DNA from: a bacterium
Lineage (GTDB): Bacteria; Bdellovibrionota; UBA1018
Direction of reading: 5' to 3'
DNA: 64,000 bases
NCBI GenBank assembly: GCA_019751945.1
Contig: JAIEMT010000001.1
Coordinates: 6,635 to 70,634 of the forward strand
Part shown: positions 4,886 to 19,178 of the stretch, one piece after another
Position numbering within the stretch: the stretch's first letter is position 1
Layout: every line of letters starts with the position of its first letter
The notes under the pieces: model-generated
Told to the model about the DNA's origin: nothing
Database searches by the model: none
Seen by the model: only the letters and a program-made list of their open reading frames with translations
Made by a program: the position numbers and the translations under genes

Positions 4886-4890
4886 AGGCT

Positions 4891-6039: not shown

Positions 6040-6057
6040 TAGGTTACGTTCCTTTTA

Positions 6058-6086
6058 CATATTTCGCAACACTAATGCGAAATATG
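6058..6086. promoter_or_regulatory. Perfect 11-bp inverted repeat CATATTTCGCA-N7-TGCGAAATATG, candidate operator
   Basis: Seen directly in the sequence, 19-47 nt upstream of the start codon of the minus-strand AAA ATPase gene. Confidence 0.3.
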
Positions 6087-6171
6087 TCACATAAATCGTG
6101 GTAGTACTGCGATTTTTGTGGAATAAGGGGGAGCTCCTTACGGAGCAGTGGGCTACCCCTTTGAACTGTTC

Positions 6172-6708
6172 TTAATTTTTTCCGTAGGCGCGATCGACGA
6201 TCGAGTCGACTGCGAGTGCTTGGTACGGCTCGCTCTTGGGGTCCATCTTTTTAAGCCGATCGAGTCCTTCCCAAGTAATGCCCACGCAACCGCTTGTCGG
6301 CTTCGTTAAATGTTCTCGGAGATAAAAATTACCGCCGTAAGCGCAGACTTGGCGAGCGTCTTCAGGGTCATAGGTCGAGTAGACCGACTCGATTTTAGCA
6401 TCGGGTCTGTAATACACGATGGTTTGAACGGCCTTGATTCGATCCACCGCTTCTTGAGCGATGGTTTGAAAGGCGAGAGAATCTTCGGGCAGACTTTGCA
6501 AGTCGCGAAGATCTCCGGTCAGAATTTTGTAACACAGGCCCTTCTCTTCGGGCTTGGGTAGATAGTAAAAGTACCCACCCGCGTGAGTCGTTCGAACGGT
6601 TTTCGTTTCTAAATTTTCTCGTCGAATGCAAACCAGGTTTTCGTTTGCCCAAACTAAAGTCGGGCAGGAAACTAGCGCTGCGAGAAAGAGAATCGAGTTC
6701 TTAAACAA
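6172..6708 (-). CDS. Small secreted hypothetical protein (possible member of a tandem paralog family)
   Basis: Signal peptide MFKNSILFLAALVSCPTLVWA. It shares an AFQ-x-(I/E)A-(Q/K)-x-(A/S)-(V/I) motif with the two downstream paralogs. Confidence 0.5.
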   Translation of the reverse strand: MFKNSILFLAALVSCPTLVWANENLVCIRRENLETKTVRTTHAGGYFYYLPKPEEKGLCYKILTGDLRDLQSLPEDSLAFQTIAQEAVDRIKAVQTIVYYRPDAKIESVYSTYDPEDARQVCAYGGNFYLREHLTKPTSGCVGITWEGLDRLKKMDPKSEPYQALAVDSIVDRAYGKN

Positions 6709-6711
6709 TCC

Positions 6712-7167
6712 TTACTCCTTAGTTTGAGGACCATTTTCTTCTAGGTAACCTCGGATTCGTTGTGCTTGGTCTTCGTCGAAGAGGTCGACGCTCTTTTGCG
6801 CCTCAATTTGAAAAGCGGCAGCTTCCTCGAGTGTACGAGTGGGGAGCATGTTGAGTAAACGATTCTTGTCTGAGCTCCGAACTATCGCGCAGTAGGCGTA
6901 GGGAGGGTTGGCGCCGCCGGGTTCCTCTTTACCAAGCATAGTACCAAGCATAGTAAGCGCTTCTCTGTCGAACATTGCAGCGATGTTCGGGATTTCGTAA
7001 ACCGGTTTTCCATTTACTATGTGAGCACAGAGCATTCCTGGTGATGGACTCTCATCGATTGCCCAAAGAATATCGAGTTTCGGCGGACTCTCTTGGGACA
7101 GAGCAGGTGAAGAGATCAAGAAGGCAAACAAAACAAGCTTTTCTAGTTTCATGAGTTTCTCCAGCAT
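6712..7167 (-). CDS. Small secreted hypothetical protein, paralog of 7455..7964
   Basis: Signal peptide. Conserved PKLDILW-IDE...C...GKPVY...YAYC...AAFQIEAQKSV blocks align with 7455..7964. Confidence 0.55.
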   Translation of the reverse strand: MLEKLMKLEKLVLFAFLISSPALSQESPPKLDILWAIDESPSPGMLCAHIVNGKPVYEIPNIAAMFDREALTMLGTMLGKEEPGGANPPYAYCAIVRSSDKNRLLNMLPTRTLEEAAAFQIEAQKSVDLFDEDQAQRIRGYLEENGPQTKE

Positions 7168-7170
7168 GGT

Positions 7171-7458
7171 TTAGGGTTTTCCTAAGCACTTCCCGTTGAC
7201 CAAGAGGACAAAACGGCCAGTACGACGATCAAAGCAATAGTAGGGTTCTGAGTCGATGGTTCCTTCAGCGATAATAGAAAGAGCGGAGTCTGGATTTCTC
7301 AGCAGAGGCTCAATGGCGTCGTTTATTTCTTGAGCGGCTTTTATGTACAAAGCATACTTCGCGGTCGTCATAGGGGCGGAGTTTTCACTCGGGGACGTCA
7401 CGGCGAGGGCCGATGAAGAGGTGAATAAGACAAATAGAGCTAGTTTTTGGATAGTCAT
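7171..7458 (-). CDS. Small secreted hypothetical protein (95 aa)
   Basis: Signal peptide MTIQKLALFVLFTSSSALA. Two Cys residues. Tightly packed between the paralogs, with a 4-nt overlap with the upstream gene. Confidence 0.45.
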   Translation of the reverse strand: MTIQKLALFVLFTSSSALAVTSPSENSAPMTTAKYALYIKAAQEINDAIEPLLRNPDSALSIIAEGTIDSEPYYCFDRRTGRFVLLVNGKCLGKP

Positions 7459-7964
7459 GGGTTCTTCCCTTTCAATTTTTCAGCAGCTTCAAGCTGCAAT
7501 CGATATCGTTCACTAAATTGTTCATAGGCTTTAATATCTATGGGCACTTCGCGTACAAGAGGCTCGCCTGGTTTTGTAAGATCTACTTGAGAAGCATGGT
7601 AGCGTTCAAGTTGGGCAGCGTACTCATCACCGTAACGTTCAATGCTAGCCTTCGCTTCTTTCTGAAAGGCCGCTTGGTCTTCCGGAGTTTTTGCATTCGA
7701 ATACATTTTGCTTAAACGCGAGAAGTCAGCGGGGGTCACCCGGTTACAATATTCGTAGCTGCCGCCGTCGCGATCGAGTTCCGGCATGGCGTAAATCGGC
7801 TTGCCTTGAGAAAGCCGGGCGCAGACGAGTTGATCTGTGCTTCGTCGCGCACCGTCATCAATGACAAAGAGAATGTCTAGTTTCGGATTGTCTTGAGCCA
7901 ACACCGAAAGCGACGACAACACAGCAGCCGATAAAACAAAGTAACGAATCTTCATGCGGCGCAA
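7455..7964 (-). CDS. Small secreted hypothetical protein, paralog of 6712..7167
   Basis: Signal peptide. NPKLDILFVIDD...C...GKPIY...YEYC...AAFQKEAKASI blocks shared with 6712..7167. Confidence 0.55.
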   Translation of the reverse strand: MRRMKIRYFVLSAAVLSSLSVLAQDNPKLDILFVIDDGARRSTDQLVCARLSQGKPIYAMPELDRDGGSYEYCNRVTPADFSRLSKMYSNAKTPEDQAAFQKEAKASIERYGDEYAAQLERYHASQVDLTKPGEPLVREVPIDIKAYEQFSERYRLQLEAAEKLKGKNP

Positions 7965-8033
7965 TATAGAATTACTGACTAATTAAGTCAATAAATAGGT
8001 TAAAGCTGAGAATTAACGTGTAATTTCAATCAA

Positions 8034-8261
8034 TTAAGCGGTTTGTTCAGCGCCTGGTTTCCAGGTGCGCTTCACGGGACGGGTGATTTTGCCGGTGCGG
8101 ATACAGCGGGTGCAAACTCGAACGGTTTGAGTTGCGCCGTTCAAAACGGCTTTCATCTTTTTAAGGTTTGGCAACCAGCGGGTACGCGTCTTAATATTAG
8201 AGTGTGACGACAAGTTACCGTAATTCGGGCCTTTTTCACAGAAATCACATTTGCGTGCCAT
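8034..8261 (-). CDS. rpmB: 50S ribosomal protein L28
   Basis: 75 aa. MARKC-FC-K......LSHSN-KTRTRWLPNL matches the L28 signature (Cys cluster plus RRxxPNL). Confidence 0.8.
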   Translation of the reverse strand: MARKCDFCEKGPNYGNLSSHSNIKTRTRWLPNLKKMKAVLNGATQTVRVCTRCIRTGKITRPVKRTWKPGAEQTA

Positions 8262-8286
8262 GGTACATAAACCTCTTTAAGAACCG

Positions 8287-8994
8287 ATGAACCTAGTGAA
8301 TTTCATGGCCTTTTGCAAGATAGAAAAGCACCGAATCCACCGAATCCGGAGATATTTTAAGGTTGGAGCGCAAGCTCTCGCCTGGGTCGCGGGCGCGATC
8401 ACCCTTTTCTGCACCATCTGGGCTTTCATCTGGGCTGGCGACATCTATGAGTACCAAGACTCAGTCGATGGAGTGCATTTACCTCAAGTCGATGTGATTG
8501 TCTGCCTCGCCGGTGGCCGGGGTCGCATCTCGGCGGCAGGGGACCTTTGGTACCGGTACTACGAAGCCTTTCAGAATCCCCCCGTTTTTTACGTCTCGGG
8601 GATGGGTGGGAAGTCGAATTGGAACGTCTTAGCCAAGCAGGTTCGCCCCGGGGTTTTAAGTGCGCTGAAACCGAAGAACGTCATTCTTGAAAATCAGAGT
8701 TCCAACACCGATGGCAATGCGCAGTTTCTCACTCGGGCGGCGAAGGAACACGGGTGGACTCGAATTCTCATCGTGACTTCGCGCTACCACATGCGACGCG
8801 CGCGCTATATTTTCGAAGAAACGCTCACCACGTTAGGACATCCCGTCCAAATTGAAACGCTGTCTGTGTATCAAGAGCCGTTTGAGCCGAACGAGTGGCG
8901 CGATGATTTACAGGGCATTCGCGTGACGATGATTGAGTACGTGAAGTGGCTCTACTACACGCTGAACTGGACGCCGGGGCGCGCGCTCGATTGA
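8287..8994 (+). CDS. DUF218 (YdcF/SanA/ElyC-like) domain membrane-anchored protein
   Basis: N-terminal TM helix, then VDVIVCLAGGRGRI...TDGNAQFLTRAAKEHGWTRILIVTSRYHMRRARYIF, the DUF218 core. Confidence 0.7.
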   Translation: MNLVNFMAFCKIEKHRIHRIRRYFKVGAQALAWVAGAITLFCTIWAFIWAGDIYEYQDSVDGVHLPQVDVIVCLAGGRGRISAAGDLWYRYYEAFQNPPVFYVSGMGGKSNWNVLAKQVRPGVLSALKPKNVILENQSSNTDGNAQFLTRAAKEHGWTRILIVTSRYHMRRARYIFEETLTTLGHPVQIETLSVYQEPFEPNEWRDDLQGIRVTMIEYVKWLYYTLNWTPGRALD

Positions 8995-9023
8995 CGCAAA
9001 GAGATACTTTTATTGCTGGCGAT

Positions 9024-9039
9024 GTACGCAGCTGCGTAC
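9024..9039. terminator. 16-bp perfect palindrome GTACGCAGCTGCGTAC followed by CAAAAAG, a possible bidirectional terminator or protein-binding site
   Basis: Seen directly, 30 nt after the stop of the DUF218 gene. Confidence 0.25.
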
Positions 9040-9142
9040 GCAAAAAGTCGCGCGCTCTTGTCTCTGAATCCTTTTGGGTCTAACAAGGATTTAGGGATTT
9101 GCTTTTGGGATCCGTTCATTTCTAAACAGAAAAGGGAGATTT

Positions 9143-9445
9143 ATGAAATCTTTTAAAGTCGCATTGGTGTCTTTTATTTCTTTAATGAGTGTATCGAGCT
9201 TTGCTGCTGAAGCGATGATGCCTTACATCATTATCGTCAAGAACGAATTTGATTTTGCTGAGTGTGCTGATGACATCGAGATGATTAAGGGCGTAACGGT
9301 TACTGAACGGATTGATATTATCTCAACGGTTGCTGCAGAGATGAGCGATCGTGCGTTGAGCAAAGTGCAGAAGATGGATTGTGTCGGTAGCGTGGAAGAA
9401 GATCAACAGGCGTATCCGTTGCCAGCTATTGGCGGCAGTAAGTAA
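9143..9445 (+). CDS. Small secreted protein with a subtilisin-propeptide (peptidase inhibitor I9)-like fold, tandem copy 1
   Basis: Signal peptide MKSFKVALVSFISLMSVSSFA. The mature part YIIIVKNEFDFAECADDIEMIKGVTVTERIDIISTVAAEMSDRALSKVQKMDCVGSVEEDQQAY follows the I9 pattern (YIVxxK ... G.V.....I..f.a.ls...l..l...p.V..VE.D). Confidence 0.5.
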   Translation: MKSFKVALVSFISLMSVSSFAAEAMMPYIIIVKNEFDFAECADDIEMIKGVTVTERIDIISTVAAEMSDRALSKVQKMDCVGSVEEDQQAYPLPAIGGSK

Positions 9446-9477
9446 ATGGGTGAGTCGTTTATAGAAATGGGAGATTT

Positions 9478-9792
9478 ATGAAATCCTTAAAAGTTGCTTT
9501 GGTACTACTTGTCTCTTTCATGAGTATGTCGAGTTTTGCTGCCGAGTGCGGTTGGCAGCAGCCTTATATCGTTCTGGTTCGGGCTGGATATGATTCTGAA
9601 GCCTGCGCCGATGCAATTGATTTGATCAAAGGTGCTGAGGTTCGGGAGGTCATGCATACCTTTCAGCAGATGACCGCGGATCTTTCTCCCAGGGCCTTGT
9701 TGAAGGTAGGGAAACTCGGCTGCGTAGAAAATGTGCAGCCGGATCGGACGATGTACCCTCAGCCGGCTATCGGGGGCAGTAAAGAAAGATGA
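9478..9792 (+). CDS. Small secreted inhibitor-I9-like protein, tandem copy 2
   Basis: Paralog of 9143..9445 and about 45% identical to it. The RBS/start context GGGAGATTTATGAAATC is duplicated. Confidence 0.5.
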   Translation: MKSLKVALVLLVSFMSMSSFAAECGWQQPYIVLVRAGYDSEACADAIDLIKGAEVREVMHTFQQMTADLSPRALLKVGKLGCVENVQPDRTMYPQPAIGGSKER

Positions 9793-10622
9793 GTTCCGAA
9801 GGCTGGTCTGTAGAGCAGATCAATACGATTCTGCAATCGACCCACTATCGGGAACTGCTTCGAGTGGCGTTGAATGAGAGGGCGCGCACTGGTCGGGCCC
9901 TCTCTTTTGCAGAGTTGAGTCGACGAGGAGGATTCCGTTCTCGGAGCTTTCCGCGAGATGTCTTGGGGAGTACGCGAGGCCTGACTCGAGAATCCGCCCG
10001 TCGTTTCGCGAAAGCATTCGGCTTTCCCTCTGTAGTTTCGACCTATCTCTATGCCCTGGTGGACTTGGATCGGGAACAGGAAAGCCTGGAGCTTCGAAAA
10101 AAGGCGCAGGTTCTTCAGGCCCGAGCGATTCGGAAAATCAGGGCTCGTACAGAAAATGCTCCTAAAAACGCTTTTGTGTTGCCCGAATTTAGCAAGGTGT
10201 ACGCGGCTTTGGGGTCTCCTACGCGGGGCGCTACTCTCGAGGAAATCGAAAAAAGAACGAAGCTTTCTCGAAAAGAACTGCTGAGGACGCTGGAAGCCTT
10301 GATAGAGAGTCAGTTGGTGGTGGAGGAAGAAGGGCGTTGGAAGGCCAAGCAGAACATCCTGCTTTTCGACAACCTTTCTAAACATGAATTTTTTCAGAAA
10401 GTTTTTCTACGAAGATTAAAGAATGCCCAGGTTTTGGCTCAAACCCAATTCCAAAGGGACGATGCGCTTTTTTGGGAGAGCACTTTTTCTATTTCATCGA
10501 AACGGTTGCCCGAACTCCGAGTTCGCCTGCGTGAGGTTCTGGGTCGATTTATAGAAGAGGCTGAAGAGTTCGAGGGAGATCAAATCTCTTCGGTAGCCGT
10601 TTCTTTTTTTCCGTTAGATTGA
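9789..10622 (+). CDS. Cytoplasmic hypothetical protein with an N-terminal HTH-like region (resembles TIGR02147/DUF4423-type proteins)
   Basis: No signal peptide. The N-terminal ALNERARTGRALSFAELSRRGGFRSRSFPRDVLGS looks like an HTH. The start overlaps the preceding stop (ATGA), suggesting translational coupling. The family assignment is from memory and uncertain. Confidence 0.45.
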   Translation: MSSEGWSVEQINTILQSTHYRELLRVALNERARTGRALSFAELSRRGGFRSRSFPRDVLGSTRGLTRESARRFAKAFGFPSVVSTYLYALVDLDREQESLELRKKAQVLQARAIRKIRARTENAPKNAFVLPEFSKVYAALGSPTRGATLEEIEKRTKLSRKELLRTLEALIESQLVVEEEGRWKAKQNILLFDNLSKHEFFQKVFLRRLKNAQVLAQTQFQRDDALFWESTFSISSKRLPELRVRLREVLGRFIEEAEEFEGDQISSVAVSFFPLD

Positions 10623-10867
10623 CTGTGTTATCCCGACAATGAAGTCGGCATTCGGATGACGAACCAAGATCGCGACTCCTCGATTAGCACTTCTATTCGA
10701 ATCGGAAACCGAATCGATTACGGATTTGAAGCCATCGAGGCTCTGGGGAATGAAAAAGGTGGATCCATTGCAGTTCGGTACTGGATGCCCAACCTAGATC
10801 AAGCCATTTCCGAGTGCACAAAGGACTTTTTTAAAAACCTCTAGGGTTTTAAGAAAATAATTTTGCG

Positions 10868-12367
10868 CTAAAGAGTCGGCTCAGCACGTAAGGCCTTTTT
10901 CAGGACCTTTCCGCTATCGCCTTTAGGCAGGGTTGCCAGAAATTCGAAATACTTGGGCACCTTATAACGTGCCAGGTTCTGCTGGCAGTAGCTCAAGAGT
11001 TCCGTTTCAGAAACGGCTGCGCCTTTTTCTAGCGTTACAAAGGCCTTTCCGACTTCTCCCCAACGTGCGTCGGGGACGCCAATCACTGCGGCTTCGTGAA
11101 CTTGGGGGTGGCTGGTCAGGACCTGTTCAATTTCGGCGGGGTACACATTCTCGGCTCCGCTGATGAACATGTCCTTCTTCCGACCCACGACGTAGAAATA
11201 GCCTTCGGCGTCTCGACGGACGAGGTCTCCGGTGAAAAGCCAACCGTCGCGAATCGTTTCCTGAGTGGCGTCGGGTCTGCCGTAGTAACCCAGAGTCGCG
11301 GTGGGTCCTTTGAGTGCGAGCTCGCCGACGGTGTCGTCGCCGGGAGGAACGACTTTTCCTGTGTCGTCGATGATCTGTGCTTCGATGTAAAAATTTGGAA
11401 ATCCAATCGAACCGATTTTTCGAACGGAGTCGTCTTCGTTTAACGAAAATACGTTGGGACCAAATTCGGTCAGCCCGTACCCTTGGCGAATGGGGATTCC
11501 TTTTTCTTGCCAGGTTCGAATCAGTTCGAGGGACATCGGTTCTCCGCCCACGATGGCGTAGCGAACGGACTTGAGCTGAGCTCCGAAGAAGTAAGGGGAG
11601 CGGGCGAGCATGTCCATCATTGTGGGTACTCCAAAGAGGATGGTCAGAGACTCGGAGTCCGCCAGTTGCAAAATCTGATCAGCGTCGAACTTCTTCATTA
11701 AAATGACCGTCGCTCCGCGATGGAAGCAGGGCGTGTTCAATACGTTCCAGCCCCCGGTGTGGAAAAGCGGCAAGAAGGCGAGGACTCTTTCATTTTGAGT
11801 GAGGTTGAGACGCAGACCGGTGTTGATCGAATTCCAGTAAAGCATCCCGTGGTGAATCAAGGCGCCCTTAGGATGTCCGGTGGTTCCCGAGGTGTAGAGA
11901 ATCATGCACACGGTATCGGGAGTGGCTTGAATCGGAATTTCCTGCGCATCGGCTGGAGCTGAGGGAGCGTCGTCTAATTTCCTGCGAAGTTCCTCAAAGT
12001 TTTCCGTTTTCATTTCGATCGAACCCACGACCGATCGAAACTGCTTCTGACATAAAATGAGTTTGGGCTGGCAGTCGCTCAAGATAAACTCGACCTCTCT
12101 CGAGGTCAGGCGGTAATTAATGGGAACCAGAATGGCGTTGAGTCGCTGTAACGCGAAGAAAAGAAAAAAATACTCGAGCTCGTTTCCTGCCAGCACGGCC
12201 ACCCGGTCGCCCGCGCCGACTTGATGAGTGTCTCGAAGCCAAGCAGCGAGTCGGACGGAGCCTCGATAAAATTCGAGGTAGCTTACTTCGCGGCCAGTCT
12301 CTGCATCCTTCAGCGCTGTGTGAGAGGGGGAGTAGAGACTCCATTTCTTCAGCCAGTCCAGTTCCAT
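10868..12367 (-). CDS. AMP-dependent synthetase/ligase (acyl-CoA synthetase family)
   Basis: AMP-binding motifs LYTSGTTGHPKG and GYGLTEFG, plus the C-terminal TGDL...GRKKDMFISGAENVYPAEIE. Confidence 0.85.
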   Translation of the reverse strand: MELDWLKKWSLYSPSHTALKDAETGREVSYLEFYRGSVRLAAWLRDTHQVGAGDRVAVLAGNELEYFFLFFALQRLNAILVPINYRLTSREVEFILSDCQPKLILCQKQFRSVVGSIEMKTENFEELRRKLDDAPSAPADAQEIPIQATPDTVCMILYTSGTTGHPKGALIHHGMLYWNSINTGLRLNLTQNERVLAFLPLFHTGGWNVLNTPCFHRGATVILMKKFDADQILQLADSESLTILFGVPTMMDMLARSPYFFGAQLKSVRYAIVGGEPMSLELIRTWQEKGIPIRQGYGLTEFGPNVFSLNEDDSVRKIGSIGFPNFYIEAQIIDDTGKVVPPGDDTVGELALKGPTATLGYYGRPDATQETIRDGWLFTGDLVRRDAEGYFYVVGRKKDMFISGAENVYPAEIEQVLTSHPQVHEAAVIGVPDARWGEVGKAFVTLEKGAAVSETELLSYCQQNLARYKVPKYFEFLATLPKGDSGKVLKKALRAEPTL

Positions 12368-12370
12368 GAA

Positions 12371-13378
12371 TTAAACTCCCCAACGAATGGCTGCGGATGC
12401 CATCGAGAGGCCTCCGCCAGATCCCACCAGCATAATGAGGTCGCCGTCCTTCAGAAGATTTTTCGATGCAGCGTCGGCGATGGCCATGGGGATGCTGGCG
12501 CTCCCGGTATATCCGAAGCGATCCATGATGTTGTGAGATTTCGCCCGATCGACGCCAAGTTTGTCCAGCGTCTCGTGAATACTTTGAATATTGATTTGCG
12601 TTAAGAAATAGCGCGAAACATCCGAGATCTGAGAAGCCGTTCGGTCGAGCAAGATGTGGATTAAGCGCGGCCAATGAGTGCCGTTGGTTTCGATGGGAAT
12701 CTTCTTTGCGAAATTGAGGAGGTGCCCTTTTTCTTGCAGGACTTTCTCGCTCAGGGGATTGGCAGTTCCCCCCGCGTAGAGGCCCATGTAGTCGTGATAT
12801 TGGCCATCCGTGTAGAGCTGGGAAGCCAAGATGCCTCGATCCTTCTTCTGCGATCCTTGTAGGATCACCGCGCCGGCCCCGTCTGCGAAGAGGGAAGCAA
12901 TCTTGTAATCGTCCCAGTTTAAAAACTTGGTCATGCCATAGGCGCCCACCACTAAAATGTTTCTATAATGAGAGTCGGTCTGAATGTATTTGCTCCCGAC
13001 ATCGAGGGCAGTCACAAATCCCGCGCAAGCGCTGTTCAGGTCGAAAGTTCCGCTACGGGTTGCACCCAGCTTGTGTTGAACCACAGCTGCTGTCGAGGGT
13101 GAAAGATAGTCCGGGGTGTCGGTTGCCACGATGATGAGGTCGAGATCGGTAGCACTGATCCCCGCAGCCCGCATGGCGTCTTTTGCGGCGGGAACGATGA
13201 GGTCGGAAGTCACTTGGTTCTCAGCCATGTAGCGACGTTCGAAAATATTTCGCTTCTCTCTCAAGAAGGTGTCGATATCGATTCCATAGCGATTATTGAA
13301 ATAATCGTTCCGTACGACCTTCTCGGGTGCGTACATTCCTGTGCCTGCAATGACTGCTCGCGTTGGTGAATGGGTCAT
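12371..13378 (-). CDS. 3-oxoacyl-ACP synthase III-like condensing enzyme (FabH/KAS III family)
   Basis: Active-site NSACAGFV (Cys) and the C-terminal GSGGGLSMASAAIRW. Start set at MTHSPTRAVIAGTG (ATG 13378) because an AGGGGG SD lies 13 nt upstream. It lies 3 nt downstream of the ligase gene. Confidence 0.85.
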   Translation of the reverse strand: MTHSPTRAVIAGTGMYAPEKVVRNDYFNNRYGIDIDTFLREKRNIFERRYMAENQVTSDLIVPAAKDAMRAAGISATDLDLIIVATDTPDYLSPSTAAVVQHKLGATRSGTFDLNSACAGFVTALDVGSKYIQTDSHYRNILVVGAYGMTKFLNWDDYKIASLFADGAGAVILQGSQKKDRGILASQLYTDGQYHDYMGLYAGGTANPLSEKVLQEKGHLLNFAKKIPIETNGTHWPRLIHILLDRTASQISDVSRYFLTQINIQSIHETLDKLGVDRAKSHNIMDRFGYTGSASIPMAIADAASKNLLKDGDLIMLVGSGGGLSMASAAIRWGV

Positions 13379-13505
13379 AGTAATTGTGGATATCCCCCTG
13401 GTTTTTTTGATCTGAGATGGGCGAGATGTCAAGCGGCTTGACAGGGAAGTATGTGGGGGCTAGCTTTGCTCGCACATCAACAACATCTTCGGATCGGGGG
13501 ATCCC

Positions 13506-14267
13506 ATGAGCCAGCTCCGTTTTGATTTCTCAACACGTACCGCAGTCATTACAGGAGGGGCGCAGGGAATTGGTTTTCAAATCGCTAAAAGTTTCTTAGA
13601 TGCGGGCGCTCGCGTTTCCATTTGGGATTATTCTCCGGGCGCGCTCGACGTTTGTCGGTCCGAGCTGTCCTCGTACGGAGATCGAGTGCATTACGCAGCC
13701 GTGGATGTTTCGAAGTTCGACGCCTGCCAAGTGGCTTCTGCTCAGCTTCCGTTCAAGGTCGATGTTCTCGTCAATAACGCGGGCATTACGAAGGATAAGA
13801 CCTTGGCAAAAATGTCTGTCGAGGATTTTGAAGCGGTCATTGGCGTGAACCTCACTGGACTTTTTAATGTGACTCGATCGCTTCTCGAGAAGTTTAACGA
13901 CGGGACGGAGACTCAGCCGAAGCAGCGCCGCATTATTAATATCTCGAGCATCGTGGGGCTCTACGGGAATTTCGGCCAGACCAATTATGCGGCTGCTAAA
14001 TCAGGAGTGATTGGCATGACCAAGACTTGGGCACGCGAACTGGGCCGCAAGGGTTTTACGGTGAATGCAATCGCACCCGGATTCATTCAGACGGCCATGA
14101 CCGCCAAAATGCCGAAAGAAGTTTTAGATGAAATGCTGTCTAAAATTCAGGTGGGGCGTTTGGGAAATCCCGAAGAGATTGCCAGCACCTGTTTGTTTCT
14201 TTCCTCTCAACAGGCTGCCTTCATTAATGGTGCCGTGATTAGTGTGGATGGAGGCATGCTGTGCTAA
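13506..14267 (+). CDS. Short-chain dehydrogenase/reductase, FabG-like 3-oxoacyl reductase
   Basis: TGGAQGIG cofactor motif, NNAG, S...YAAAK catalytic tetrad, and 253 aa of classical SDR. Confidence 0.85.
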   Translation: MSQLRFDFSTRTAVITGGAQGIGFQIAKSFLDAGARVSIWDYSPGALDVCRSELSSYGDRVHYAAVDVSKFDACQVASAQLPFKVDVLVNNAGITKDKTLAKMSVEDFEAVIGVNLTGLFNVTRSLLEKFNDGTETQPKQRRIINISSIVGLYGNFGQTNYAAAKSGVIGMTKTWARELGRKGFTVNAIAPGFIQTAMTAKMPKEVLDEMLSKIQVGRLGNPEEIASTCLFLSSQQAAFINGAVISVDGGMLC

Positions 14268-15271
14268 AAAAAATTCTTTGTCTGACGCTGTCATTGACGT
14301 GGGCGTCCGTAGCTGCGGCCGGTGTTTCTCAATCAGGTTTTAAAAAACTCCCCAACGGTCACGAAATCAATATTGAGTACACCCCAGCTCAGCCGGGGAA
14401 GCCGACTCTCGTGATCTTGAATGGCCTGACTTACAAATTGGAGAGTTGGAATTTCATGATGCCCACCCTGGAGTCACAGGGGAATGGAATCTTACGATTG
14501 GACCCCATGGGCCAGGGCCAGACGCTTCTGAAGTACGCTCCAATCGACTTTAAGATTTCAATTGAAACTCAGGCAGATGATTTGGCTTTTTTACTGAAAT
14601 TATTGGGGATCAAACAGCCAGTGCACCTTCTCGGCCTTTCTTACGGAGGCGGCTGGGCGATGGTCTTTGCCAATCGCTACCCCGCTCAAGTCGCAAGTCT
14701 GATTTTGATGGCCCCTTTTGTAGGACCCCTTCCCGGTCAGGATACGCAGATTCGGTCTTCGATTGCCTTTGTTCGGGCTCAGGGGTACCTGAATCCGCTC
14801 AATGCGCTGACGGATGACGAACTCTACGACTATTTCTTGAAACAGAATGTTTACACCACGTATCCGCTGTACGAACCGATCGTGTTAGAAAATCCCTTCA
14901 AGCTCGAGGCCACCTTCCGTCTTGTTCAGGGAATTCGGAAAGTGGAAGTTCAGAAGTATATGAAGAATTTCCCGGACAAAGCGGTGCATTTGATCGACGC
15001 CGGATTGGATCAATATATTCCGCGTTCGATGATGGACCAGTTTTGGAACGACCTTCCCGTTTCCAAAAAGGCCAGCCGAATGAATTTGAATTTTTCGGAA
15101 CATAAAATTCCGGAATCGAAACCGGTTTTTGCTGCCACTTGGGTGAACCTTATTTTGGCGGGCGATTCGCGCATCAGCGGCGGAAAAACTTTTGAGGGTT
15201 ATCCCAACCTGGGGCTGGCAGATTCTGGCTCTGAGAAAATTGATCTCCCCATCGACCTTTGGCCCTTCTAA
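14261..15271 (+). CDS. Alpha/beta-fold hydrolase with a signal peptide
   Basis: Signal peptide MLKKILCLTLSLTWASVAAA. Nucleophile elbow GLSYGG. Overlaps the SDR stop by 7 nt. Confidence 0.7.
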   Translation: MLKKILCLTLSLTWASVAAAGVSQSGFKKLPNGHEINIEYTPAQPGKPTLVILNGLTYKLESWNFMMPTLESQGNGILRLDPMGQGQTLLKYAPIDFKISIETQADDLAFLLKLLGIKQPVHLLGLSYGGGWAMVFANRYPAQVASLILMAPFVGPLPGQDTQIRSSIAFVRAQGYLNPLNALTDDELYDYFLKQNVYTTYPLYEPIVLENPFKLEATFRLVQGIRKVEVQKYMKNFPDKAVHLIDAGLDQYIPRSMMDQFWNDLPVSKKASRMNLNFSEHKIPESKPVFAATWVNLILAGDSRISGGKTFEGYPNLGLADSGSEKIDLPIDLWPF

Positions 15272-16080
15272 AATCTATGCCTTTTTTCGAAACTTCTGAA
15301 TTGAGACTGCATTACGAACAGGTTCCAAACCTGCTCCCTCGACCCACTCTTTTTTTACATGGGAATCTGGCCTCCAATGTTTGGTGGGAACCTTCCGTCG
15401 AAATCTGGAGTCGCCAAGCGAAGTCCTTCTCGCCGGGTCAGTCCGCTTACTTAGCGGAGTGGCGTGGCTGCGGGAAGTCTTCAGGACCGGCTTCTGAGGC
15501 TGATTTAGCGATGCCGAATTTGGCAAACGATGTCGTTCAGTTGGTGAAGAAATTGAATGTGGGTCCGATGCACGTCGTGGGACATTCCACGGGTGGACTC
15601 ATTGCTTTGTTGGCCATGTCGCAAGCTCCGGAACTTTTTAGTCGTGCTGTCTTGTTGGATCCGGTTTCTCCCAAGGGGGTGACCCTCGACCCCGCCATTC
15701 TCGGAGCGTTTGATGAAATGGCAAAGAATCGGGATCTCACCGCGACGGTTCTGGGTGGAACCATTCGGGGGAATCAAGCTGCCTCTCCCCTTTTTCAGCG
15801 AATCGTGGACAGTGCCTGCGGTGTTCATCCCTTTATTTGGAAGGGAATTCCAAAAGCTCTCAACGGAATTGACTTCACTCGAGAAGTTTCGAAGGTTCGA
15901 CATCCGACGCTGGTGATGCACGGGCAGTACGACACAGTTTTGCCTCTAGATGCATCCCAGGAATTAGCGAAACTTCTGCCCGAAGGGCGATTCGAAATGC
16001 TTCGCGATCAAGGACATTCTTGCAATGTTGAAAACCCTGAGCTCTTCGTTCAGGGCGTCAATCGGTTTCTGTTCGGCTGA
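15259..16080 (+). CDS. Alpha/beta-fold hydrolase
   Basis: HGNLASNVWW oxyanion region and nucleophile elbow GHSTGG. Overlaps the upstream hydrolase by 13 nt. Confidence 0.75.
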   Translation: MALLKSMPFFETSELRLHYEQVPNLLPRPTLFLHGNLASNVWWEPSVEIWSRQAKSFSPGQSAYLAEWRGCGKSSGPASEADLAMPNLANDVVQLVKKLNVGPMHVVGHSTGGLIALLAMSQAPELFSRAVLLDPVSPKGVTLDPAILGAFDEMAKNRDLTATVLGGTIRGNQAASPLFQRIVDSACGVHPFIWKGIPKALNGIDFTREVSKVRHPTLVMHGQYDTVLPLDASQELAKLLPEGRFEMLRDQGHSCNVENPELFVQGVNRFLFG

Positions 16081-16487
16081 TTCGTATCCAAGCATTGGTA
16101 CACGAACGAATGCAGAGTGAGAGTCCCCTTCATCTGAAAGGGGAGTTGGATTACGGCGTGCTTCCCTTCCAATTGGTCGGTGGTGAAAGTGATCTTCCCC
16201 GCGGTGATGTCGATCGTGCCAGGAACCCAAACCGCGGGAGGCTGCATTCCTCCGACTGTTGCGTTGGAAAAAAGGAGAGCCCCTGGGCCTGAGACTACTG
16301 AAGTGGGGCTCATTCCCGGAGAAAGGGCGACGGACACGGCCGTACTCCAGAAGATTTGAATCTTGGGGGTCAGGTTCGTCGGATCTAGAGAGTAACAGGT
16401 GGCCGCTTCAAAAGAGAGAGGTTCACTGGCTTGAGCGTTTCCGATAGCGAGCGCAAAAACTAGACACGGCAGAGAGAAGATTTTCAT
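16050..16487 (-). CDS. Small secreted hypothetical protein
   Basis: Signal peptide MKIFSLPCLVFALAIGNAQA. No family recognised. Overlaps convergently with the hydrolase end. Confidence 0.4.
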   Translation of the reverse strand: MKIFSLPCLVFALAIGNAQASEPLSFEAATCYSLDPTNLTPKIQIFWSTAVSVALSPGMSPTSVVSGPGALLFSNATVGGMQPPAVWVPGTIDITAGKITFTTDQLEGKHAVIQLPFQMKGTLTLHSFVYQCLDTNQPNRNRLTP

Positions 16488-16507
16488 CCCCCCTCTATAG
16501 CTTTTCT

Positions 16508-17164
16508 TTACGGTTTTGCGAAAATAATTCCGCGGGATTTCATTTGCGCCATCAACTCCTGCACGGCCTTGCGGCGGTGGGAGATGGCGTTCTTCTCTTG
16601 GTGAGACATCTCAGCCAGAGTTTTGGTCTGCCCCTGTGGAACGAAGATGGGGTCGTATCCAAAGCCTTCGGTACCTCGAGGTGTATCAATGATCGTGCCT
16701 TCGAGAGTGCCAGTGGCGGTGAGGGTAATGCCTTCAATTGAAAGCGCGAGCGTAGTGACGAATCGAGCAGTCTTGGGGCCCGAAGTCTTCTTCAATTCGG
16801 TCAGAAGTTTTTCCATGTTGGCGCGATCTTGTTCCGCGCGAGTCGAGAAGAACTTTCCCGGAGCCGGTTTGGCATAGCGCTGGGAGAACACTCCCGGGGC
16901 CCCTTCTAGGGCTTGAACCTCTAGGCCGGAGTCATCGGCCAGAGCCGGATAATGAGCGCCGTGGTTTGCCAGGCGGGCCTTGGCAGCTGCATTTTCTACA
17001 TAAGTTTTATAGATTTCTACGAACTTCAGTTTTTCGGCGTTTCGGATGTAATCCTGGGGCGCGACGAGCTCCACATCAGGGGCTTCAGTCGAAAGGATTT
17101 CCTTAAATTCCGCAAGCTTGTCTGGGTTCAATGAGGCAAAGATCACAATGTTTGAGCGACGCAT
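16508..17164 (-). CDS. rdgB: Non-canonical purine NTP pyrophosphatase (RdgB/HAM1 family)
   Basis: IVFASLNPDKLAEFKEIL and GFGYDPIFVPQG...EMS..EKNAISHRRKA are hallmark ITPase motifs. Confidence 0.85.
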   Translation of the reverse strand: MRRSNIVIFASLNPDKLAEFKEILSTEAPDVELVAPQDYIRNAEKLKFVEIYKTYVENAAAKARLANHGAHYPALADDSGLEVQALEGAPGVFSQRYAKPAPGKFFSTRAEQDRANMEKLLTELKKTSGPKTARFVTTLALSIEGITLTATGTLEGTIIDTPRGTEGFGYDPIFVPQGQTKTLAEMSHQEKNAISHRRKAVQELMAQMKSRGIIFAKP

Positions 17165-17232
17165 ATCCTTAAATTCTTACCACAATCGTGGGGGACTTCT
17201 AGGCTGGAAATAGCCGACTAAATCACCCAATA

Positions 17233-18501
17233 ATGCCGGACTTATGCTATGACTGCGTCGTGATTTACTTTCAATCCCTGACGCGCGATGAACTGGCTGA
17301 TTTGCTTCTGCCCTTCAGCGCCCGTCCCCGAGACCGCCACGTCGATGCCGACGGTACCCCGCTCGTCGAGCTGAATGACGCTCCGTCACTTCCGGAGATC
17401 AAGCGCGCCCGCATGCGCGCAAAGCAGATTTATCACTGGGTCTACCAGCGCTTCGTGACGGATTGGGATCAGATGACCGATCTCAACAAAGAGGTGCGCG
17501 GCTGGCTGAAAGAGAACGTCGAGATCTTTCGCCTGAGCGAGCGCCATGCTCAGCAGGCTACGGACGGCACTCATAAGTTTCTTTGGAATCTTCCGGATCA
17601 TAAAACCATCGAAAGCGTGATCATTCCCGCCGCTCTTCAGGAAAAAGACAAGATGGAAAACGACGGCAAGGTGTTTCGCGGTCGTCCTTCTGAAGAGGAG
17701 TTGGATTCGCAACATTGGTCGCGATTGACGGCATGCATTTCGAGCCAAGTGGGCTGCGCGATGGCGTGTAAGTTCTGCCTCACCGGAATTCAGGGTTTAG
17801 ACCGCAGCCTGGCTGTACACGAAATCGTGACTCAGGTTTTTGAACTGCGAAAGCAGGCGCCGATCACGAACATCGTTTTCATGGGAATGGGCGAGCCGCT
17901 TCACAACGTCGACAACGTGATCAAGGCCTGCAAAATCCTGCTCGACGAAGATGGAATGAATTTTTCGAAACGGAAGGTCACCGTGAGCACGAGTGGTCTT
18001 GTTCCCGCGATCGAACAGCTGGGTCAGTCCGTCGATGTTTCTTTAGCGATTTCCTTGAACGCTACGACCGACGAAGTTCGTTCGAAGATCATGCCCGTGA
18101 ATAAGAAGTGGAATATCGAAAAGCTGATGGAGACTTGCCGGAACTATCCGCTCGGCTCGCATCGTCGCATCACTTTCGAGTACGTCTTGTTAAAAGATGT
18201 GAACGACACGATGGAAGACGCGGCCCGCTTGTTGAAGCTCGTGCGGGGCATTCCGAACAAGATCAACTTGATTCCTTTTAACGAACACAGTGGTTCTGAG
18301 TTTCTACGCCCATCGGATGAAACCGTTCGGAAGTTTCAGCGTTACTTGGTGGATCGCGGCTTAACGGCGACAGTGAGAATTTCTCGCGGCCAAGATATTC
18401 TGGCGGCCTGCGGACAGCTGCGCAGTATTTTTGGAACAGCTCGCGGCAGCGATCGTCACAAGGACTGGGCGGGCTTAAAGGGAATGGCCGGCACGTCCTG
18501 A
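17233..18501 (+). CDS. rlmN: 23S rRNA (adenine2503-C2)/tRNA methyltransferase, radical SAM
   Basis: RAKQIYHWVY N-terminal motif, the CISSQVGCAMACKFCLTG radical-SAM cluster and MGMGEPLHN. Has an N-terminal insertion and a C-terminal extension of about 25 aa. Confidence 0.85.
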   Translation: MPDLCYDCVVIYFQSLTRDELADLLLPFSARPRDRHVDADGTPLVELNDAPSLPEIKRARMRAKQIYHWVYQRFVTDWDQMTDLNKEVRGWLKENVEIFRLSERHAQQATDGTHKFLWNLPDHKTIESVIIPAALQEKDKMENDGKVFRGRPSEEELDSQHWSRLTACISSQVGCAMACKFCLTGIQGLDRSLAVHEIVTQVFELRKQAPITNIVFMGMGEPLHNVDNVIKACKILLDEDGMNFSKRKVTVSTSGLVPAIEQLGQSVDVSLAISLNATTDEVRSKIMPVNKKWNIEKLMETCRNYPLGSHRRITFEYVLLKDVNDTMEDAARLLKLVRGIPNKINLIPFNEHSGSEFLRPSDETVRKFQRYLVDRGLTATVRISRGQDILAACGQLRSIFGTARGSDRHKDWAGLKGMAGTS

Positions 18502-19178
18502 CAGAGAATCGGAACTCCCTCGGTCTGAAGCTCCACAGCCATTTTGTCGATCTCGTACATTTCTTTTAAATCCTTGATCTGAGCATCCAGAAACATCCAC
18601 GAAACGGTTTTTGCGAGCCACGGGTAAGATTTCTTTTGTTCCGCTTCGGCAGCGTAGATCGGGCCTTGAACGGCGGTCGATCCAATCGATTCTAGAAAAT
18701 GTCGAGTTATGCAAAAGTAAGAGGGAATCTCTTTGAGACGGATAATTTCTAAGAAAGCTTGCTTTTGAAGACCAAAAAAATCCCGCTTCGACGCGAATTC
18801 CTGAAGGCGACTCTGAATGGCTTCAATCTTGGGATAATCGGAAGGAAGCAGCGCTCTCGGGTGGGGCTGAACATAGCTCAAAAAAGCCGGTGCACCTTTG
18901 ACTGAAACCAGCTCCCGACAGAGCATCGGAATTCCCTTCGCTCGAAACGGCGCGGTGATGGGTTCCAGCAAATAGAGTTTCGCGATGGCCCAGTTTTCGT
19001 AGTCAATCAAACGCTTGGTGATGGGTTCCGATCGGCCCTTGGTCACCGTCTTATAAAGGATGTCTCGGGAGTGGTTGAGCTCTTTTCCTTCCTCAACGTG
19101 CGTGCGAATGCAGGGCTCGCTGAGGCAGGCGGAGAGGAGGAAGACTAACAGGAACGCACAGGGAATCTGCTTAATCAT
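18456..19178 (-). CDS. Hypothetical lipoprotein
   Basis: MIKQIPCAFLLVFLLSAC lipobox-like signal. It is the last gene of the MoxR-to-cyclase operon and overlaps the upstream gene by 8 nt. Confidence 0.45.
   Translation of the reverse strand: MIKQIPCAFLLVFLLSACLSEPCIRTHVEEGKELNHSRDILYKTVTKGRSEPITKRLIDYENWAIAKLYLLEPITAPFRAKGIPMLCRELVSVKGAPAFLSYVQPHPRALLPSDYPKIEAIQSRLQEFASKRDFFGLQKQAFLEIIRLKEIPSYFCITRHFLESIGSTAVQGPIYAAEAEQKKSYPWLAKTVSWMFLDAQIKDLKEMYEIDKMAVELQTEGVPILCQDVPAIPFKPAQSL

Follow-up and report, generated by a model that had tools for sequence, protein, structure and literature searches.

A KAS III-fold protein with a Cys-Thr-Tyr active site in a conserved five-gene cassette of Bdellovibrionales: a possible CoA-dependent catabolic module

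A five-gene cassette was analysed in a stretch of 64,000 nucleotides (hereafter the window; contig JAIEMT010000001.1 of assembly GCA_019751945.1, forward-strand positions 6,635 to 70,634) from an uncultured member of the Bdellovibrionota (GTDB UBA1018). The cassette encodes an AMP-dependent acyl-CoA ligase (LIG), a protein with the fold of ketoacyl-acyl carrier protein (ACP) synthase III (KAS III, or FabH; here termed KAS3), a short-chain dehydrogenase/reductase (SDR) and two alpha/beta-hydrolases (ABH1 and ABH2) (Table 1). KAS3 retains the nucleophilic cysteine of FabH, while threonine and tyrosine occupy the positions of the catalytic histidine and asparagine, a combination (Cys-Thr-Tyr, CTY) whose conservation implies a non-condensing enzyme of a separate, uncharacterised clade and not a FabH. 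Within the limits of our searches, the novelty lies in a KAS III-fold enzyme with a repurposed site in an operon conserved among bacteria and archaea, the fold and the domains being already known. As to its role, we give an even chance to the cassette being a CoA-dependent catabolic or salvage module with a beta-oxidation-like logic rather than a condensing biosynthetic system.

Alignment of KAS3 with the solved FabH structures 8vd9, 1zow and 2ebd by HMMER revealed that the nucleophilic Cys is kept (in the motif NSACAGF), while the catalytic His is replaced by Thr260 (PHQAN to LTQIN) and the catalytic Asn by Tyr290 (GNTSAAS to GYTGSAS). Both assignments were reproduced by MAFFT, in which His244, Asn274 and Phe304 of Escherichia coli FabH correspond to Thr, Tyr and Ser, respectively; the E. 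coli reference used in this alignment matches the window gene at 31% identity over residues 5–317 (tblastn), in line with the solved FabHs. Overall, KAS3 displays approximately 30% identity to FabH. The Gly-rich loop GSGGG, which provides the acyl-thioester oxyanion hole in FabH, is kept. Additionally, R36, R151, K214 and R249, basic residues with a role in CoA binding or ACP docking in FabH, were found not to be conserved in the MAFFT alignment of KAS3, and across four aligned CTY members the R249 position is occupied by Q, V, R or S and the K214 position by E, D or T, K256 likewise not being conserved; R249, K214 and K256/257 are the residues which we take to form the ACP-docking basic patch of the E. 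coli enzyme. The His-Asn pair of FabH-type enzymes serves to stabilise the enolate that arises when malonyl is decarboxylated. Since this pair is lost while the Cys and the Gly-rich oxyanion loop are invariant, KAS3 would be expected to form an acyl-cysteine without being capable of canonical condensation.

Every one of the 82 Bdellovibrionales-type loci has the CTY combination, as do 84 of 87 KAS3 copies from 83 distant loci. In an exhaustive HMMER search of KAS3 against 1.84 billion protein representatives, nearly all full-length matches above approximately 220 bits were of the CTY type (with one Cys-Asn-Tyr), down to 34–40% identity, while canonical Cys-His-Asn FabHs first appeared at 222 bits and dominated below approximately 200 bits. 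Following removal of the motif columns, at least 17 of 20 Tyr-class sequences grouped in an unrooted bipartition that contained no Cys-His-Asn sequence, a result obtained in 58 of 60 neighbour-joining bootstraps; a midpoint-rooted test for monophyly of the CTY sequences was uninformative. KAS3 scored 245 bits against the general FabH subfamily model NF006829 (cut-off 249) and 212.7 bits against TIGR00747 (cut-off 292.1), and none of the five cassette proteins reached an NCBIfam equivalog cut-off. Only the ACP_syn_III domains were significant in Pfam. Thiolases I/II are marked by Thiolase_N and Thiolase_C domains and a Cys/His/Cys active site; KAS3 does not match PF00108, Thiolase_N being seen solely as a faint precomputed match among its relatives; this bears on membership of thiolases I/II and not on whether the enzyme works in a thiolase-like manner. 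An AlphaFold2 model (predicted local distance difference test score 82, predicted template modelling score 0.86) was placed by Foldseek at TM-scores of 0.82–0.89 to the FabH fold (8vd9, 1zow, 1hn9), BioZ and PqsD, and since the fold search returned only FabH, BioZ, PqsD and FabH2 it offered no functional discrimination. KAS3 thus shares with FabH the fold, the position of the nucleophile, the Gly-rich oxyanion loop and the two Pfam domains, but differs in the residues at His244, Asn274 and Phe304, the lost basic residues, the sub-cut-off scores, the separate clade and its occurrence in archaea.

Public databases name CTY proteins 'ketoacyl-ACP synthase III' and, in one case, 'Acetoacetyl CoA synthase NphT7', while the accompanying SDR, which carries an NAD-type signature, is named 'FabG'; this naming is probably a systematic over-annotation of the entire clade. 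Within the limits of our searches, no solved structure, specific NCBIfam model or paper on a CTY KAS III-like enzyme or on the module was found; a literature search on Bdellovibrio FabH yielded nothing relevant, and another, on KAS III-like acyltransferases with altered triads, brought up no Cys-Thr-Tyr variant.

Conservation of the cassette was assessed by scanning one genome per GTDB species and comparing the retrieved loci, which include complete Bdellovibrio bacteriovorus and Bdellovibrio sp. chromosomes, with the window proteins by tblastn. KAS3 orthologues at 60–72% identity were identified in 80 loci, nearly all labelled Bdellovibrionales, and all five genes occurred together in almost every locus of sufficient length. 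Across 81 distinct loci (B. bacteriovorus serving as the reference locus and the window being counted once), KAS3 was present in 81, LIG in 74 (in each case adjoining KAS3), SDR in 72, ABH2 in 63 and ABH1 in 56, while flanking genes recurred in at most 34. In approximately eight loci whichever of the genes are present share a single strand and run SDR-(ABH1)-ABH2-KAS3-LIG, with the full set of five being carried by L029, L045, L046, L052, L062, L063 and L079. The conserved flank in the Bdellovibrio clade, comprising the aa3 cytochrome c oxidase operon, CtaB and SCO1, was considered as a functional part of the cassette and rejected, as it represents functionally unrelated synteny. Since the five genes recur together while flanking genes are rarer and the conserved flank is unrelated in function, the cassette constitutes a discrete conserved unit. 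The first-pass annotation, which was made from the sequence of the window alone, had allowed that the genes might prove to be independently distributed; on the contrary, the neighbourhood is strongly conserved, and its co-occurrence in approximately 80 species lies far beyond chance. The nearest relatives are Oligoflexia and Pseudobdellovibrionaceae bins, and identical genes were found on Logan contigs from SRR15085120 and SRR15085122.

Members of the CTY clade were detected in Bdellovibrionota, Acidobacteriota (Pyrinomonadaceae), Chloroflexota (Anaerolineales), Bacteroidota (Saprospiraceae), Spirochaetia and the archaea Thermofilum adornatum, T. pendens and Infirmifilum, the last three groups being identified by cluster look-ups; a profile of the distant members retrieved large Acidobacteriota (Pyrinomonadaceae) and Anaerolineales groups. 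De novo clustering of open reading frames (ORFs) from the 83 distant loci yielded an alpha/beta-hydrolase in 64, an AMP-ligase in 53, MaoC in 26, an SDR in 14, a CoA-transferase in 4 and an Esterase_PHB protein, positioned upstream, in 4. The same census counted TonB-dependent receptor-like barrels (28), TetR-type regulators (21), major facilitator superfamily (MFS) proteins (18), ATP-binding cassette (ABC) transporter components (16) and solute-binding proteins (13). Where at least 5 kb was available on either side (18 loci), a hydrolase was present in 16, any transporter in 15, a ligase or CoA-transferase in 13 and MaoC or SDR in 13. In 54 cases a hydrolase gene is the immediate same-strand neighbour of KAS3, the intervening gap having a median of approximately 12 nt. 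Pfam annotation of individual loci identified TetR, a TonB-dependent receptor, ABH, KAS3, a ligase of 600 aa, a second ABH, MaoC and MFS in a Pyrinomonadaceae locus (L083); KAS3, LIG, ABH, SDR, a further LIG and ABH, a binding protein and an ABC component in an Anaerolineales locus (L085); two ABH genes, KAS3, SDR, a binding protein, four ABC components and TetR on a metagenome contig (L087); and, in the complete genome of T. adornatum (L168), SDR, a helix-turn-helix regulator, LIG, two ABH genes, two ABC ATPases, two permeases, KAS3, a binding protein and a 2-hydroxyacid dehydrogenase. The binding proteins of L087 and L168 (9088–10617 in the latter) are of the Peripla_BP_6 type. No PP-binding (ACP) gene and no classical thiolase gene was present in any Pfam-annotated locus (among them L083, L085, L087 and L168), nor was a DUF35 protein seen in the annotated loci. 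Searches of the Protein Data Bank (PDB) with two solute-binding proteins of related operons gave ambiguous results: the archaeal solute-binding protein best matched Rhodopseudomonas-type binders of unassigned ligand, and the metagenomic one matched generic LIV binders.

The partner ligases of distant CTY genes belong to two families, namely the window type (37–46% identity) and a FACL type (26–30% identity), while a CoA-transferase of the acetyl-CoA hydrolase/transferase family represents a third kind of acyl-CoA-forming partner, the three kinds being unrelated. Since either ligase family or the CoA-transferase may accompany the CTY gene, the constant need appears to be an acyl-CoA donor and not one specific ligase.

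Two unusual arrangements of CTY genes were also observed. In L089–L094 a tandem pair of KAS III-like genes, both CTY (6987–7976 and 8001–8990 in L090), precedes a single hydrolase gene, after which come genes for a double-TetR regulator, a binding protein and an ABC transporter, while ligase and SDR are missing from the vicinity; the pair may form a heterodimer and the locus may be a minimal version of the module. In a Bdellovibrio sp. metagenome-assembled genome, L053 carries a second, divergent copy of the module (2393–7344) upstream of its main KAS3, composed of an ABH2-like gene on the minus strand, an ABH1-like protein of 446 aa that has a hydrophobic segment at its N-terminus, a CoA-transferase of the acetyl-CoA hydrolase/transferase family and a CTY paralogue of the 'distant' type. 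This second KAS III-like gene was considered as a canonical Bdellovibrio FabH, an assignment that was rejected as it proved to be another CTY paralogue.

The enzymes encoded beside KAS3 were characterised with respect to family membership and catalytic residues. LIG scored best against MenE/FadD-type NCBIfam models without reaching the cut-off of any (PRK06187: 458 bits, cut-off 476), and its closest solved relatives are the fatty-acyl/feruloyl-CoA synthetase 8weu/8wev (372 bits), FadD13 (292) and MenE (278). The SDR missed the FabG equivalog models (268 bits against 296; 267 against 297.75), while passing the FabG subfamily model NF009466 (229.5 against 222). Its catalytic Tyr161 and Lys165 are invariant and the Ser is conserved, and orthologues at 42–47% identity occur in distant CTY loci. 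Strand beta2 ends in an acidic residue (Asp41 in the window), which is Asp in 67 and Glu in 3 of the 70 Bdellovibrionales orthologues that could be read, and Asp in all 11 distant ones. By a published SDR coenzyme rule, such a residue predicts NAD rather than NADP, FabG being an NADPH enzyme; on this rule the SDR resembles a catabolic dehydrogenase.

ABH1 has a GLSYGG nucleophile elbow, with Ser127, Asp250 and His281 kept in 54–55 of 56 orthologues. Its N-terminus (MLKKILCLTLSLTWASVAAAG) resembles a Sec signal, and a hydrophobic N-terminal segment was present in 30 of 41 ABH1 orthologues as against none of 34 ABH2 orthologues, in line with the signal peptide proposed for the first hydrolase in the first-pass annotation; as ABH1 is predicted to be exported, the pathway would start outside the cytoplasm. 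ABH1 matched solved proteins weakly (lipase 4opm, 44 bits) and the PcaD and polyhydroxyalkanoate (PHA) depolymerase models at 44 and 37 bits. ABH2 has a GHSTGG elbow and conserved Ser110, Asp225 and His253; its best NCBIfam matches, to the PcaD enol-lactonase (90 bits) and to an intracellular short-chain PHA depolymerase (79 bits), fall far short of the cut-offs, and its PDB matches include RsbQ (66 bits) and the polyhydroxybutyrate (PHB) depolymerase 8ynv (52 bits). The closest distant relative of ABH2 is the hydrolase of L095 (127 bits), for which the PHA-depolymerase model NF050089 gives 141 bits. The hydrolases that accompany CTY genes elsewhere behave similarly (PcaD 135–146 bits against 256; NF050089 141 against 300 in L095; TIGR02240 approximately 100; HsaD 154 against 400), and with curated cut-offs of 255.85 (TIGR02427, PcaD), 300 (NF050089) and 250.6 (TIGR02240) these represent best-scoring models only and not family membership.

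The five genes had initially been likened to the oleABCD pathway, in which a head-to-head Claisen condensation, a reduction, beta-lactone formation by a ligase homologue and decarboxylation by a hydrolase yield olefins or beta-lactones. The resemblance consists of the four broad superfamilies involved (thiolase fold, ANL ligase, SDR and alpha/beta-hydrolase), and it does not extend to the individual enzymes. OleB is a haloalkane-dehalogenase-related alpha/beta-hydrolase with an Asp nucleophile, while both cassette hydrolases have a Ser nucleophile; on the haloalkane-dehalogenase model ABH1 reaches 24 bits against a cut-off of 241, and the model is not among the best 25 of 29 matches of ABH2. 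OleD is an extended-type (3beta-HSD-like, ~330 aa) NADPH-dependent reductase, while the cassette SDR, as recognised from the outset, is of the short classical type (253 aa, matching adh_short and adh_short_C2 only) and carries the NAD-type residue. FabH Phe87-Pro88, which we take to be equivalent to OleA Glu117-Pro, aligns to an invariant Ser93-Pro94, so that KAS3 has Ser93 at the Glu117 position in addition to Thr260 and Tyr290 for His and Asn. KAS3 matched solved FabH at 173 bits as against 67 bits for solved OleA chains, the latter over residues 29–135 only. OleA is a thiolase with a Cys-His-Asn triad, to which the partner subunit contributes Glu117 as a general base; Glu117 followed by Pro is near-universal, and Glu117 is essential (PMC7064751). 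LIG is closest to bona fide CoA ligases (8weu/8wev, FadD13 and MenE), which argues indirectly against OleC, a beta-lactone synthetase of the ANL superfamily, and relatives of the module are linked to importers in other lineages. An Ole-type function for the cassette is therefore scarcely credible, whereas the suggestion, made in the same first-pass annotation, that the pathway is a separate one not yet described gains support here and is taken further.

In the proposed catabolic or salvage module, the catabolic direction, the succession of steps, the CTY chemistry and the substrate are all inferred. The exported ABH1 and the cytoplasmic ABH2 would cleave ester or lactone bonds of an external or prey-derived substrate to release a (hydroxy)carboxylic acid, which LIG would convert to its CoA thioester. 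The NAD-type SDR would then oxidise the hydroxyacyl-CoA to an oxoacyl-CoA, with a MaoC hydratase as the presumed equivalent in other lineages, where it replaces the SDR or stands beside it. Finally, KAS3 would accept the acyl group on Cys118 and hand it to CoA or another acceptor, in a thiolase-like shortening or a transacylation that would not involve malonyl decarboxylation. The combination of a KAS III-like enzyme with only the Cys of the triad, obligatory acyl-CoA formation, an NAD-type dehydrogenase and/or R-specific hydratase, hydrolases of ester or lactone type of which one is predicted to be exported, and importers with TetR regulators fits a catabolic or salvage function. Independence from ACP is suggested by the ACP-docking residues, which are not conserved, by the lack of an ACP gene in the annotated loci and by the presence of the module in the archaeon T. 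adornatum.

Regarding the substrate, (R)-3-hydroxyalkanoate-type esters, for example PHA oligomers or acyloxyacyl lipids, are the likeliest class, albeit a guess to which we attach little confidence; such a substrate would explain the recurrence of SDR and MaoC and the hydrolase matches to PHA depolymerases, and would make sense for a predator. The SDR and MaoC fit because both would turn R-3-hydroxyacyl-CoA into ordinary beta-oxidation intermediates. B. bacteriovorus HD100 releases 3-hydroxyalkanoate monomers and oligomers from prey PHA, the later catabolism of which has only been guessed at, and its known PHA depolymerases, Bd3709 and Bd2637, lie outside the cassette (PMC4834554). Aromatic or other carboxylic esters are also possible substrates.

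Several known systems share parts of this logic. In the lower beta-ketoadipate pathway (PcaD/PcaIJ/PcaF) and in beta-oxidation, a hydrolase opens an ester or lactone, CoA activation follows and a thiolase-fold Cys enzyme acts thereafter; MaoC and SDR would supply hydration and oxidation, and the partner hydrolases score best, albeit below cut-off, on PcaD. The cassette differs from the beta-ketoadipate system in this sub-cut-off similarity, in its activation by a ligase and in having a KAS III-type enzyme rather than a thiolase I/II. PHA depolymerases and oligomer hydrolases cut (R)-3-hydroxyalkanoate esters by means of Ser/Cys hydrolases, their products requiring CoA activation, MaoC/PhaJ or a dehydrogenase, and a thiolase; the cassette hydrolases recurrently match such models (NF050089, TIGR02240, Esterase_PHB), although weakly and below cut-off throughout, and the known Bdellovibrio depolymerases are located elsewhere. 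A chemical precedent is offered by PhaZ1, which frees 3HB-CoA from PHB by thiolysis (PMC3430594). A second precedent comes from the steroid side-chain retro-aldolases Ltp2 and Sal, which have a thiolase fold in which canonical residues are replaced, use Tyr as acid/base and partner with MaoC-type hydratases (PMC12329534). They resemble the present case in the repurposed thiolase-superfamily site, the use of CoA thioesters in catabolism and the MaoC partners, but are SCP2-thiolase-like and need DUF35, Ltp2 moreover having no nucleophilic Cys, whereas the CTY proteins are KAS III-like with an invariant Cys. Tentatively, and with appreciably less confidence than for the catabolic function as such, the CTY enzymes may constitute a new class of the thiolase superfamily that performs non-decarboxylative, CoA-dependent cleavage via an acyl-Cys, with Tyr and Thr as proton donors or as stabilisers of an enolate or alkoxide; the reaction could be retro-Claisen thiolysis of a 3-oxoacyl-CoA or thiolysis of the oxo-ester in a hydroxyalkanoate-oligomer-CoA, and would be the signature step of an undescribed catabolism of esterified hydroxy acids.

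A number of observations weigh against the catabolic function. The Bdellovibrionales cassette itself is devoid of a transporter or regulator, and the argument consequently leans in part on distant homologues whose substrate may be different. We know of no KAS III-fold enzyme for which thiolysis has been described, and that Thr and Tyr take over from the enolate-stabilising pair is a hypothesis. Every hydrolase family match falls far below its curated cut-off, and in some loci KAS3 is accompanied by an ABH and a transporter only, ligase and SDR being absent from the surroundings. Many Type-A loci have a MaoC without an SDR that could feed general beta-oxidation, which would render a dedicated thiolase needless. 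Additionally, growth-phase-specific transcription, described below for HD100, is common to most housekeeping and biosynthetic genes in the same data, and existing resources treat the HD100 genes as biosynthetic: a ClusterFinder survey placed Bd0276–0284 among biosynthetic clusters of the fatty-acid type, and in the iCH457 metabolic model Bd0280 and Bd0281 serve as alternatives for FabH and FabG.

The cassette corresponds to Bd0279–Bd0283 of HD100, as mapped by synteny with the cox genes (Bd0286–0288, Bd0290) and by published tables; Bd0280 is annotated as 3-oxoacyl-ACP synthase III, Bd0281 as 3-oxoacyl-ACP reductase, Bd0282 as a putative lysophospholipase and Bd0283 as a putative carboxylesterase. 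In an alternative interpretation, the cassette is a biosynthetic starter or lipid module: LIG would activate an unusual acid, KAS3 would prime fatty acid or polyketide synthesis or act as an acyl-CoA:ACP transacylase, and the SDR would serve as FabG, in the making of a special lipid or the recycling of prey fatty acids, which Bdellovibrio reportedly reuses (PMC7529429). Such a role is compatible with the overall similarity to FabH and FabG, including the FabG subfamily model that the SDR passes, with the ClusterFinder flag, with the listing of Bd0280 and Bd0281 in iCH457, and with the acyl-loading half-reaction of FabH, for which the retained Cys and backbone oxyanion hole are sufficient. In iCH457, however, the FabH reaction is given to Bd2014 alone, located in the Bd2010–2014 fab cluster; Bd0280 has no role there beyond that of an alternative acetyl-CoA:ACP transacylase, and Bd0281 is one among four candidates for FabG. 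By this model assignment, Bd0280 is not the sole FabH-like gene of the organism. The cassette is not located beside fab genes. The possibility that KAS3 is a housekeeping FabH in a genome with no other fabH is consequently not borne out, given also the separate CTY clade.

According to HD100 RNA-seq data, Bd0279–0283 are near-silent in attack phase and expressed 3 h inside prey (0–5 versus 110–1072 reads per kilobase per million). This growth-phase-specific expression would suit a biosynthetic module; nevertheless, since most genes in the data set behave alike, it does not discriminate between the readings. In a 2025 HD100 proteome Bd0281 was detected throughout the cycle. A remark in that study, that an 'operon Bd0276-0284' is 'implicated in fatty acid synthesis', was followed up and set aside as support, its sole source being the computational ClusterFinder survey. 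The biosynthetic interpretation is further opposed by the missing His and Asn for malonyl decarboxylation, the four basic FabH residues that are not conserved, the annotated loci without an ACP gene, the presence in Thermofilum, the NAD-type rather than NADPH-type SDR, and an exported esterase which, along with the importers and TetR regulators of other lineages, suits uptake over synthesis. We thus regard it as unlikely, and the same reasons count against the earlier proposal that the genes supply starter units of unusual fatty acids or alkylquinolones.

The adjacent gene Bd0278 (12586–13110 in L040; 174 aa) lies directly downstream of LIG in B. bacteriovorus, has no Pfam match and is kept in approximately eight loci only, with no counterpart in the window. 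Its growth-phase induction is 106-fold by RNA-seq, and its product is among the two most induced growth-phase proteins in the 2025 proteome.

It is also conceivable, though doubtful, that KAS3 acts as an acyltransferase, moving the LIG-activated acyl group to an O, N or S acceptor (a small molecule, a lipid head group or a hydroxy acid), with the hydrolases trimming or releasing the product. KAS III-like enzymes with altered triads are established acyltransferases and not condensing enzymes, as exemplified by CerJ, ChlB3 and DpsC, which combine a Cys or Ser nucleophile with His and either Asp or another His and work alongside dedicated ACPs in polyketide tailoring (PMC9573744). They offer the closest functional analogy for a non-condensing FabH-like enzyme, sharing the KAS III fold and a non-canonical triad, and the kept Cys and acyl oxyanion hole, together with the tight coupling of CTY genes to three kinds of acyl-CoA-forming enzyme and an adjacent hydrolase, would be compatible with acyl transfer. 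Nevertheless, these acyltransferases keep the His, which CTY members replace, and KAS3 is far closer to FabH in sequence, with no CerJ, ChlB3 or DpsC chain named among its 57 PDB matches at E values of 1e-10 or below. Furthermore, the CTY loci show no conserved neighbour that would supply an acceptor (ACP, glycosyltransferase, non-ribosomal peptide synthetase or polyketide synthase), and importers, TetR, MaoC and an NAD-type SDR are more typical of degradation.

With two of the three canonical catalytic residues gone, KAS3 might alternatively be a catalytically dead FabH paralogue that assists the neighbouring hydrolase structurally or as a regulator and is tightly coupled to it (median gap of approximately 12 nt). 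PqsBC is a heterodimer with one inactive subunit, and the tandem KAS3 pairs recall such heterodimers. However, the Cys is invariant in all copies examined, and Thr, Tyr and GSGGG are strictly conserved across bacteria and archaea; as this conservation signifies a working active site under selection and not decay, a dead paralogue is very improbable.

The recurrence of a large bacterial and archaeal clade in the same enzymatic company near importers is the signature of a widespread uncharacterised pathway, and thousands of database entries named 'ketoacyl-ACP synthase III' or 'FabG' belong to the module, including the genes so used in the B. bacteriovorus model. If the CTY enzyme is indeed non-condensing, those annotations and the model reactions are wrong. 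The CTY chemistry, once known, would add a reaction type to the well-studied KAS III fold, and should the cleavage class outlined above be correct, it would define a catabolic pathway common to predatory bacteria, soil Acidobacteriota, Chloroflexota and hyperthermophilic archaea. For Bdellovibrio, the catabolic module could supply a missing step in the use of prey esters, such as PHA or lipid-derived hydroxy acids.

The features of the cassette are listed in Table 1. All five ORFs and their enzyme classes were recovered where the first-pass annotation had placed them (ORF list and Pfam), as was the 3-nt spacing between the LIG start and the KAS3 stop. The overlapping junctions described for the plus strand hold for SDR and ABH1 (7 nt), while those of ABH1 and ABH2 overlap (13 nt) only if ABH2 starts at TTG; the gene caller favours an ATG at 15277, which gives a protein of 267 aa and leaves a gap of 5 nt. 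For KAS3, candidate starts are TTG 13432 (353 aa), ATG 13378 (335 aa) and ATG 13336 (321 aa, the automatic call). Since conservation in the family begins at Ala8 of the 335-aa form, the start is probably ATG 13378, and the automatic call appears to cut off conserved residues.

Table 1. Coordinates of the cassette genes and the divergent intergenic region in the window
Feature	Position	Strand	Basis	HD100 orthologue
LIG, AMP-dependent acyl-CoA ligase, 499 aa	10868-12367	-	Pfam AMP-binding (2e-84), AMP-binding_C	Bd0279
KAS3, KAS III/FabH fold, Cys118-Thr260-Tyr290, 335 aa from ATG	12371-13378	-	Pfam ACP_syn_III, ACP_syn_III_C	Bd0280
Divergent intergenic region between KAS3-LIG and SDR-ABH1-ABH2 operons, 127 nt	13379-13505		Sequence read	
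SDR, classical, FabG/PhaB-like, NAD-type signature, 253 aa	13506-14267	+	Pfam adh_short, adh_short_C2	Bd0281
ABH1, Ser-Asp-His alpha/beta-hydrolase, predicted exported, 336 aa	14261-15271	+	Pfam Abhydrolase_1, Hydrolase_4	Bd0282
ABH2, Ser-Asp-His alpha/beta-hydrolase, predicted cytoplasmic, 273 aa (TTG)	15259-16080	+	Pfam Abhydrolase_1 (5e-27)	Bd0283

The intergenic region had been described as a shared divergent promoter region; the region itself is real, while no promoter consensus passed the scan, with no sigma-70-like site above threshold between 13379 and 13505. Promoter and terminator scans of 10500–16600 gave nothing that exceeded the expectation from shuffled sequence, and Rfam at gathering thresholds returned no match in 8000–19000 of the window. 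By eye, a candidate promoter facing SDR may be discerned at 13438–13466, consisting of TTGACA (13438–13443), a 17-nt spacer and TAGCTT, 40 nt before the SDR ATG. In a sample of 60 divergent SDR-KAS3 intergenic regions (59 related loci and the window), the inverted repeat TAGAG-N5-CTCTA was present in 17 (mean of 0.37 and maximum of 4 in shuffles), namely in L005, L009, L011, L013, L017, L023, L024, L027, L030, L031, L034, L039, L040, L041, L055, L060 and L068, and absent from 13379–13505 of the window. After the repeat come an A/T-rich stretch and, facing KAS3-LIG, a -35-like element (CTTGCC/TTGCAA/TTGACA); the repeat is a candidate operator of some regulator.

The neighbourhood of the cassette in the window contains several further ORFs. 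A gene encoding a DUF4423/TIGR02147-family protein (9789–10622, plus strand) lies on the opposite strand 245 nt past the 3' end of LIG; it is not kept beside the cassette elsewhere and is probably unrelated to it. At the other end, an ORF of 145 aa (16050–16487, minus strand), whose N-terminus is signal-like and which matches neither Pfam nor NCBIfam models, converges on ABH2, overlapping its 3' end by 31 nt; other genomes do not keep it beside the cassette. A pair of small paralogous ORFs in tandem (9143–9445 and 9478–9792, plus strand; 100 and 104 aa), which were called by the gene caller and have no Pfam match, possess signal-like N-termini (MKSFKVALVSFISLMSVSSFAAE and MKSLKVALVLLVSFMSMSSFAAE, respectively) and similar C-termini ending in PAIGGSK.

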